The notes beneath the pieces are model-generated. The model had not been told where the DNA came from. It worked only from the letters and a program-made list of their open reading frames with translations, and did no database searches. A stretch of 64,000 bases of DNA, taken from assembly GCA_020723185.1 (NCBI GenBank), contig DYJI01000007.1, positions 59,003-123,002 on the forward strand, given 5' to 3'. The DNA comes from Sideroxydans lithotrophicus. Lineage in GTDB: Bacteria; Pseudomonadota; Gammaproteobacteria; Burkholderiales; Gallionellaceae. Shown piece after piece: positions 49,701-49,802 of this stretch; position 1 is the stretch's first letter; every line of letters begins with the position of its first letter. The position numbers and the translations under genes are program-made.

Positions 49701-49708
49701 GTCGAACC

Positions 49709-49750
49709 ATGAAAGTTAGCGTCCTCTTTGTCTGCATGGGCAATATCTGA
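49709..49750 (+). pseudogene. 5' stub of a low-molecular-weight protein-tyrosine phosphatase gene, interrupted at attL
   Basis: Translates [13 protein letters not shown]-stop. This is the VLFVCxGNICRS P-loop with the second Cys codon read as TGA, and integrase lies 52 nt downstream. Confidence 0.85.
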
Positions 49751-49769
49751 AACGCCCGCAGGCAATGGA

Positions 49770-49802
49770 CTTGTAAAACTTTAGTAAAATCCTTGTAAAG
49801 TC
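49770..49802 (+). repeat. Three 11-bp-period direct repeats, candidate integrase arm-type sites
   Basis: CTTGTAAAACT / TTAGTAAAATC / CTTGTAAAGTC between the junction and the int stop. Confidence 0.6.

Follow-up and report, generated by a model that had tools for sequence, protein, structure and literature searches.

The SXT/R391 integrative conjugative elements (ICEs) have the 5' end of prfC as their insertion site (Hochhut & Waldor, 1999, cited by PMC8409611 and PMC5812530) and share a backbone of 52 genes whose nucleotide identity exceeds 95% (PMC5812530). Other integrative elements, such as IMEVchUSA3, are specific for dusA (PMC8409611, and Farrugia et al., 2015, as cited there). In this work we describe a locus at which a comparable insertion involves the gene of a low-molecular-weight protein-tyrosine phosphatase (LMW-PTP). 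Our interpretation, to which we assign a probability of about 85%, is that a large ICE of the Gallionellaceae, equipped with an F-type transfer system, inserts in the P-loop codons of the LMW-PTP gene and rebuilds this gene as a hybrid at its far junction, attR. In the searchable literature we found neither an element described as inserting in an LMW-PTP gene nor any account of ICEs in Gallionellaceae; LMW-PTP is thus a target without an earlier report in the literature searched, while the mechanism itself is known from SXT at prfC and from the dusA islands. The features of the locus are listed in Table 1.

Table 1. Features of the insertion site and of the left part of the element (positions in the window)
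Feature	Position	Strand	Basis
uvrB, final host gene ahead of the junction	47676..49700	+	Pfam UvrB_inter, UvrB, Helicase_C, UVR
LMW-PTP gene stub at attL	49709..49750	+	sequence; 13 codons + TGA
attP/attB common stretch TCTGCATGGGCAATATCTG	49731..49749		attL/attR/attB comparison; codons C-M-G-N-I-C of CX5R P-loop
Putative crossover (overlap) region ATGGGCAA	49736..49743		marker comparison of att sites
Left part of integrative conjugative element	49744..64000		GC drop, gene content, single att copy in window
P' arm of attachment site	49750..49802		candidate arm-type Int sites
Candidate arm-type Int site TGGACTTGTAAAAC (14-mer)	49766-49779		same 14-mer in P arm of attR
Candidate arm-type Int site AATCCTTGTAAAG	49788-49800		P' arm
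Integrase, lambda Int homologue	49803..50912	-	Pfam Arm-DNA-bind_1 (PF09003) + Phage_integrase (PF00589)
Excisionase (Xis)	50909..51127	-	Pfam Exc; PHROG 629 excisionase
Repressor-like gene, divergent from 52290-52547 gene	51887..52255	-	PHROG transcriptional repressor match
Small DNA-binding gene	52290..52547	+	PHROG DNA-binding protein match
Replisome-organiser-like gene	52780..53874	+	PHROG 1701 and 6251 cited for 52780-54675 block
102-aa ORF	53871..54179	+	within 52780-54675 block
FlhC-family regulator	54145..54675	+	NCBIfam FlhC; Pfam FlhC on 99.6%-identical copy L001
F-type conjugation genes SLT, OmpA, TraL, TraE, TraK, TraB, DsbC, TraV, TraC	54459..62963	+	Pfam, NCBIfam; Pfam on L001

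In the window (the whole 64-kb stretch of DNA that was analysed), the uvrB ORF gives seven UvrB-related Pfam matches, and its product is ~100% identical in a UvrB search to UvrB P0122 of Sideroxyarcus sp. TK5, the host being a member of the Gallionellaceae. A spacer of 8 nt (49701-49708) separates uvrB from the place where the native PTP gene begins, and the short ORF found there reads ATG AAA GTT AGC GTC CTC TTT GTC TGC ATG GGC AAT ATC TGA, its TGA stop codon being finished by element DNA. The comparison with the empty site of TK5 (L093) identifies this ORF. Positions 37701-49749 of the window align with TK5 at 99.76% identity without any gap, and the alignment stops exactly at 49749, indicating that the window is a TK5-like chromosome carrying an insertion. 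In TK5, uvrB is followed, after an identical 8-nt gap, by an intact LMWPc gene of 159 aa, then by an ORF of 154 aa, a strong terminator and an RNase E gene in convergent orientation. The stub differs from the first 13 codons of the TK5 gene only by AAT in place of AAC. A chance resemblance of the stub to a PTP start is excluded by the end of the TK5 alignment at 49749 and by the continuation of the ORF as LMWPc in that strain. Beyond the stub, the GC content falls from ~0.61 to ~0.53, from roughly position 50000 to the end of the window. The original prediction, which had read a truncated ORF 8 bp downstream of uvrB followed by non-host DNA and an integrase gene, and had placed attB in the 5' end of a phosphatase gene, is therefore borne out by the comparison of the window with the empty site, which maps attB to codons 9-11 of the 159-aa gene. 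Relatives with the phosphatase directly after uvrB had also been expected, and besides TK5 the uvrB-PTP order was found in several more distant Betaproteobacteria (GTDB scan with uvrB; at most 81% identity among the matches listed). Integration would leave a dead 13-codon stub after uvrB at attL, as is seen in the window.

The 17-mer TGCATGGGCAATATCTG is present in a single copy in the window, at 49733-49749; no second copy was found in the 64 kb, even with up to 3 mismatches allowed, and no tRNA gene either. A LexA box (CTGT-N8-ACAG), sought as a sign of SOS control of the native operon, is absent from the window. In metagenome run X4, in which uvrB has a depth of ~220 compared with 79 for the element, a contig tracks the window up to 49749 and then continues with CAGGTCGCCCACGGCCGAGGCGGTGTTTCG (...ATCTG|CAGGTCGCCCACGGCC), which codes for the continuation of PTP. 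The presence of this intact-gene contig beside the element shows that intact and occupied sites coexist in run X4, the intact contig belonging to a different strain.

The position of the strand exchange can be narrowed down by comparing the attachment sites. The TK5 attB reads GTC TGC ATGGGCAA C ATCTG CCGC, the window attL reads GTC TGC ATGGGCAA T ATCTG AAAC and the attR of L096 reads ATC TGC ATGGGCAA C ATCTG CCGC, from which attP would be ATC TGC ATGGGCAA T ATCTG AAAC (...ATTTTTATCTGCATGGGCAATATCTGAAACG...). The codon AAC is found in the TK5 attB and in the L096 attR and AAT in every attL; the C/T marker thus travels with the right-hand partner, which puts the exchange on its left. Conversely, L007 and an X3 contig each retain the host-type TGT codon at attL, which puts the exchange on the right of the Cys codon. 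We infer that exchange occurs within ATGGGCAA, in the Met-Gly-Asn codons of the C-M-G-N-I-C-R-S P-loop, these bounds assuming that the pre-insertion site of the window resembled TK5. The overlap regions of tyrosine recombinases are 6-8 bp long, which the length of ATGGGCAA fits. The ATC TG|A position pointed out in the original prediction hence stands as the right limit of attP/attB identity, while the crossover itself would lie a few bases to the left.

The integrase encoded next to attL is of the lambda type. Int is 369 aa long, with its stop codon 52 bases past the stub, and it matches PDB 5j0n with an E value of 9e-47 across residues 4-368, that is, over its full length. What we take to be the catalytic set of lambda Int (R, K, H-x-x-R, H, Y) is aligned and conserved (QR, KT, HExR, GH, Y). 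The candidate arm-type site TGGACTTGTAAAAC of the P' arm, which is adjoined in the window by a second copy of CTTGTAAA, also occurs in the P arm of attR (L099, 9907-9920), 90 nt upstream of the hybrid ATG; the motif is thus a candidate present on both arms, as expected for the arm-type sites of an Int with an arm-binding domain. A lambda-type integrase with Xis and arm-type sites would recombine attP with attB in the 5' end of the host LMW-PTP gene, and excision by Int and Xis should restore the native gene exactly. No attP circle was detected in the assembled contigs of six runs (X1-X5, X7) or in viral contigs, with three patterns, and no contig holding both ends of the element was found.

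The attR of the window itself lies outside the 64 kb, and the form of attR was read from related genomes (L096-L102 and L106). In a search with the TK5 phosphatase, the closest relatives fall in two N-terminal classes, the native one, MKV[KSN]VLFV-C, and one that is four residues longer, M[NK]NKEK[VI][GS]VIFI-C. Among the best 120 PTP homologues, the VIF[IV]-type N-terminus is present in 27 and the native 8-residue type in 71, and several of the 27 have bodies that are 96-99% identical to those of native-type proteins. The best match, P0241, starts with MNNKEKVGVIFI, and beyond the P-loop its identity with the TK5 protein is 99.3%; P0241 and the native TK5 protein share one 90% cluster. In the contigs that encode P0241 (L096-L098), the host DNA downstream of the gene is 99.6% identical to TK5, and upstream there is unrelated AT-rich DNA that ends ATG AAT AAT AAG GAA AAA GTT GGC GTT ATT TTT ATC TGC ATG GGC AAC ATC TGC CGC TCC. 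At all the attR sites named above, an element-derived ATG and 12 codons are joined in frame to TGCATGGGCAA(C/T)ATCTG(C/T)CG and to the host body of the gene, and these junctions are seen both in a TK5-like host and among other element lineages, of which there are at least three. It had been anticipated that a second copy of the att sequence, at the far end, would continue into CRSP with an element-derived N-terminus, and this is observed in a TK5-like host and in others. By analogy with the relatives, the far end of the window's element is expected as ATGAATAATAAGGAAAAAGTTGGCGTTATTTTTATC-TGCATGGGCAA-CATCTGCCGC: the AT-rich 5' exon of the element (ATG and 12 codons, MNNKEKVGVIFI) would be joined in frame with the P-loop and body of the host gene, giving a hybrid phosphatase of 163 aa, followed by a 152-aa ORF.

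The DNA upstream of the hybrid differs between lineages, while the downstream synteny is of host type in L099/L100, L101/L102 and L106. Copper and RND metal-resistance genes precede the hybrid in L099/L100, whose JGI sample also yielded the attL locus L095; type IV pilus/T2SS-like genes are found at this place in L101/L102 and a restriction-type gene in L106. L095 ends inside element DNA after 50.6 kb and L099 after 58 kb, so that the element would exceed 100 kb if these two loci are the two ends of one copy. The right end of this sister element (L099 1-9600, Ga0484001_0000074) carries a long co-oriented metal-resistance cargo, with an RND pump, P-II proteins, HMBD and YHS proteins, a P-type ATPase and DUF411. 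At the right end of two other lineages, a fragment of ~55 nt identical to the 3' part of tRNA-Asn(GTT) lies 230-280 nt upstream of the hybrid PTP start (L101 ~9717-9771; L106 ~5724-5775, minus strand), ARAGORN detecting no whole tRNA there. This fragment looks like the scar of a tRNA-Asn-targeting attachment site and suggests module exchange or a nested element.

According to the original prediction, the gene would keep its function only with both a new 5' end and a promoter brought by the element at attR; the new 5' end was verified in related genomes, and the promoter was not, as no match to a sigma-70 consensus promoter was found in the 900 nt before the hybrid start (L099 9200-10100). That integration or excision would switch the control of the phosphatase gene, as was also suggested there, is speculative. 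In addition, a weak terminator-like hairpin is present ~30 nt upstream of this start. We propose that the hybrid is active and would be transcribed from element DNA, by a promoter or by read-through. Expression by read-through from the last operon of the element, without any promoter of its own in the P arm, is a live alternative, since the genes upstream of attR all point toward the hybrid: in L099, L101, L106 and L108, every gene called upstream of it is on its strand. This alternative also accounts for a P arm devoid of a consensus promoter, but it must accommodate a non-coding gap of 400-550 nt with arm sites between the last cargo gene and the hybrid (L099, L101, L106), as well as conserved blocks between the P-arm site and the hybrid ATG, and in the SXT and dusA island precedents the element has its own promoter (PMC8409611). 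We consider read-through as the sole source of transcription possible, although somewhat less than probable.

The predicted hybrid protein appears complete. Its Pfam LMWPc domain extends over residues 9-153 with a score of 139.6 bits, compared with 147 bits for a native form; C13, R19, S20 and D130-P-Y132 are invariant in the PTP alignment; and the AlphaFold model has a pLDDT of 91.6, the element-coded residues 7-13 forming strand beta-1, which leads into the P-loop. The element exon has a GC content of 25%, compared with ~61% for the host, and 18 of the 24 nt of AAAGTTGGCGTTATTTTTATCTGC match the native AAAGTTAGCGTCCTCTTTGTCTGC; the exon is a diverged copy of a PTP start. Four or more element lineages that have diverged from one another keep its length and frame, and in them the beta-1 pattern [VI]-x-V-I-F-[IV]-C is conserved and residues 2-6 are variable. 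Between L096 and L101, 6 of its 36 nt differ, three of them synonymously and without indels, and the DNA upstream is rich in indels. Conversely, at the attL of L095 (12071-12073), the catalytic Cys codon of the stub is TAC instead of TGC, a change consistent with the decay of an orphaned 5' fragment. The retained domain and predicted fold, the conservation of the exon in frame, length and beta-1 pattern, the synonymous changes, and the decay of the L095 stub together argue, indirectly, for selection acting on the hybrid. These properties make it improbable that integration simply knocks out the phosphatase, the in-frame hybrid being a non-functional by-product in hosts that tolerate loss of the enzyme. 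A knock-out would be compatible with the absence of a detected promoter upstream of the hybrid, with the weak hairpin ahead of its start, and with the native gene probably relying, given the 8-nt gap, on transcription through uvrB; but an exon of equal length maintained in frame despite upstream indels, a full LMWPc domain with a confidently predicted fold, and the decay of the stub, the one fragment that is useless, are not what one would expect of a by-product.

The inserted DNA, which extends past the end of the window at 64000, carries the genes of a conjugative element. The T4SS genes are contiguous and within 7 kb of int, and the match of TraC to TIGR02746 reaches 719 bits. The genes within the window include neither a relaxase nor a coupling protein, which would lie in the part of the element past 64000; we infer from the T4SS genes that the element is self-transmissible. 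The replisome-organiser-like protein contains a low-complexity run, SNTPSNTPSNTPSDASSHASSDASSDASSDASSDAPS (window 53200-53400), and its gene gives a weak match, 27 bits and far under the cut-off, to the STY4528 pathogenicity-island replication family. No close DNA relative was detected on plasmids, as 14 kb of the element, compared by megablast with 72,556 plasmids, gave only matches of 40-59 nt, and the nearest TraC in this plasmid collection, 66% identical, is that of pSTJ2 from Sulfuricystis multivorans. The gene order of pSTJ2, with TraD, TraF/H/G, FlhC and a MobH relaxase, places the transfer system in a wider group that includes SXT/R391 and IncC, so that, as part of the interpretation we favour, the element would be a distant relative of the MOBH/SXT-IncC group. 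The view that it is instead a prophage or a non-conjugative island that borrowed a lambda-like int/xis module is very improbable. Int and Xis are indeed phage-like, with best phage matches that are 36-39% identical, an int module 91% identical to this one continues in L090 into different DNA with a CBASS cargo, and the window lacks a relaxase; against this, capsid and tail genes are absent, a contiguous F-type T4SS (TraL, E, K, B, V, C and DsbC) lies at most 7 kb from int, and the closest TraC is encoded by a plasmid with TraD, TraF/H/G and MobH genes.

That the 12-residue N-terminus is a native allele, the hybrids being ordinary orthologues and the stub an unrelated duplication, is hardly credible. 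Such an N-terminus does occur without element or stub in ES-1 and L107, and the exon is homologous to a PTP start; but a single intact gene is found at this place in TK5, which is nearly identical to the window up to the junction, only the N-terminus distinguishes P0241 from its TK5 counterpart, the hybrids have cargo and not uvrB upstream with host-like synteny downstream, and the exon has its own low GC content. The surroundings were checked for six homologues with an element-type N-terminus, and four of them are element-host chimeras. In Sideroxydans lithotrophicus ES-1 (L103, CP001965.1, 2929-10000), uvrB and PTP are separated by ~7 kb with four genes, encoding a hydrolase, a metallophosphoesterase, a GMC oxidoreductase and a hybrid histidine kinase, and the PTP has a 12-residue start, MENNGKVRILFC, of the LFCC type. 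No integrase, stub, P arm or arm motif was found at this locus, and the arrangement is either native or a very old, decayed insertion. ES-1 and L107, which lack a P arm or stub, rule out an element origin for every 12-residue N-terminus.

Eight or more host backgrounds have this element or related ones at this codon, in one case away from uvrB. Several hosts with flanks that vary both synonymously and non-synonymously (MKVS.., MKVK.., MKVG.., MQVK..) have an identical int at the same codon; L095 has a sister element, 79% identical, in this position; and in L090/L092, from a lower-GC host, this codon is occupied by the 91%-identical int module in a PTP gene located after an ExbD/TolR-like gene. 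The host sequence of every attL is variable up to the Cys codon, and the sequence from ATGGGCAATATCTGAAACG on is of the element type. The use of the same codon in varied hosts, including one in which the gene is not beside uvrB, indicates that the target is the P-loop sequence and not the uvrB neighbourhood; exchange in the most conserved DNA of the gene, the P-loop, would allow the element to use many hosts. In an NCBI MAG labelled Aequorivita sp., a genus of Bacteroidota, one contig (95,772 nt) encodes a Gallionellaceae-type UvrB (92% identity) together with this integrase (P0167 and P0373), and is probably a binning contaminant.

Other DNA is found at the same site. In L090 (7770-12005, Ga0210020_1002826) and also in L092, a type II CBASS-like defence cluster, composed of a patatin phospholipase, a DncV-like cyclase, an E1/E2 fusion and a JAB peptidase, lies a few kb from the 91%-identical int; the L090 element also encodes a second tyrosine recombinase and an IrrE-type peptidase, and its DNA past int is unrelated to the element of the window. 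In run X4, a 13,384-nt contig with a depth of 116 matches the stub and ...ATATCTGAAAC (window 49713-49753) and then continues with CCTTGTTGTAGCAGCGCACTCCAAAACCAC; this looks like another element at the same site, or like another P' arm there. This other-arm contig is commoner in run X4 than the window-type element (79), and its sequence has no match in viral contigs. Three element types are thus present at the site, the ICE lineage described here, the CBASS-carrying version and the unrelated P' arm of run X4. It is conceivable, but in our opinion unlikely, that the P-loop codons are a shared landing pad for several element types, bringing host phosphotyrosine signalling under element control. 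Such control could act via the arm site 90 nt upstream of the hybrid start, by putative Int/Xis binding, or via the FlhC-type activator, and element-borne 5' exons might become fixed once the element decays. Mobile elements would then be a source of PTP N-terminal diversity across the Gallionellaceae, for example of the ES-1 start.

The proposal that the ICE rebuilds its target gene has several practical consequences. For a family of ICEs that carry metal resistance in iron-oxidising groundwater bacteria, it gives the attachment site, both ends and a likely size (>100 kb), and it designates TK5 as a cultured empty-site strain and a possible recipient. It is also a warning for databases, as about a fifth of the best 120 homologues have an element-type N-terminus and native and hybrid proteins are merged in 90% clusters.

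Compared with known systems, the transfer region resembles most that of pSTJ2 (NZ_AP018720.1), with a 66%-identical TraC, the same order SLT-OmpA-TraL-E-K-B-DsbC-V-C and an FlhC-family regulator, but pSTJ2 is a ParAB plasmid, with no lambda-type int or xis in the 42.6-kb stretch examined. The recombination module resembles that of lambda, as the homology of Int extends over the whole protein and takes in the arm-binding domain, an arm motif is present on both sides of the core and xis overlaps int; unlike lambda, the element is conjugative and not a phage, and its attB is in coding sequence. With the dusA elements it shares the insertion in the 5' end of a conserved gene. The dusA elements differ by another integrase family with an RdfN directionality factor, by many of them being mobilisable and not conjugative, by a replaced segment of ~35 residues compared with 12 here, and by a promoter and an expression that were measured experimentally. 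The strongest likeness is with SXT/R391: a lambda-family Int with Xis, attB in the 5' coding region of a conserved housekeeping gene, a new N-terminus supplied by the element at the far junction, an F-type T4SS with DsbC beside TraC, FlhC/FlhD-like activators, and a MobH relaxase in the closest plasmid relative of the T4SS. Nevertheless, the target is LMW-PTP and not prfC, with exchange in active-site codons, the regulators and the T4SS are directly beside int, the hosts are Gallionellaceae (Betaproteobacteria), and the SXT promoter was demonstrated whereas the element promoter was not found here by a sigma-70 scan. Given the differences in target, in gene order and, as judged from the search of the plasmid collection, in sequence, the element is probably not a member of the SXT/R391 family. 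In conclusion, after prfC and dusA, this locus would be the third well-documented case of a mobile element that enters an essential-looking gene at its start and mends the gene by means of an exon that it carries.
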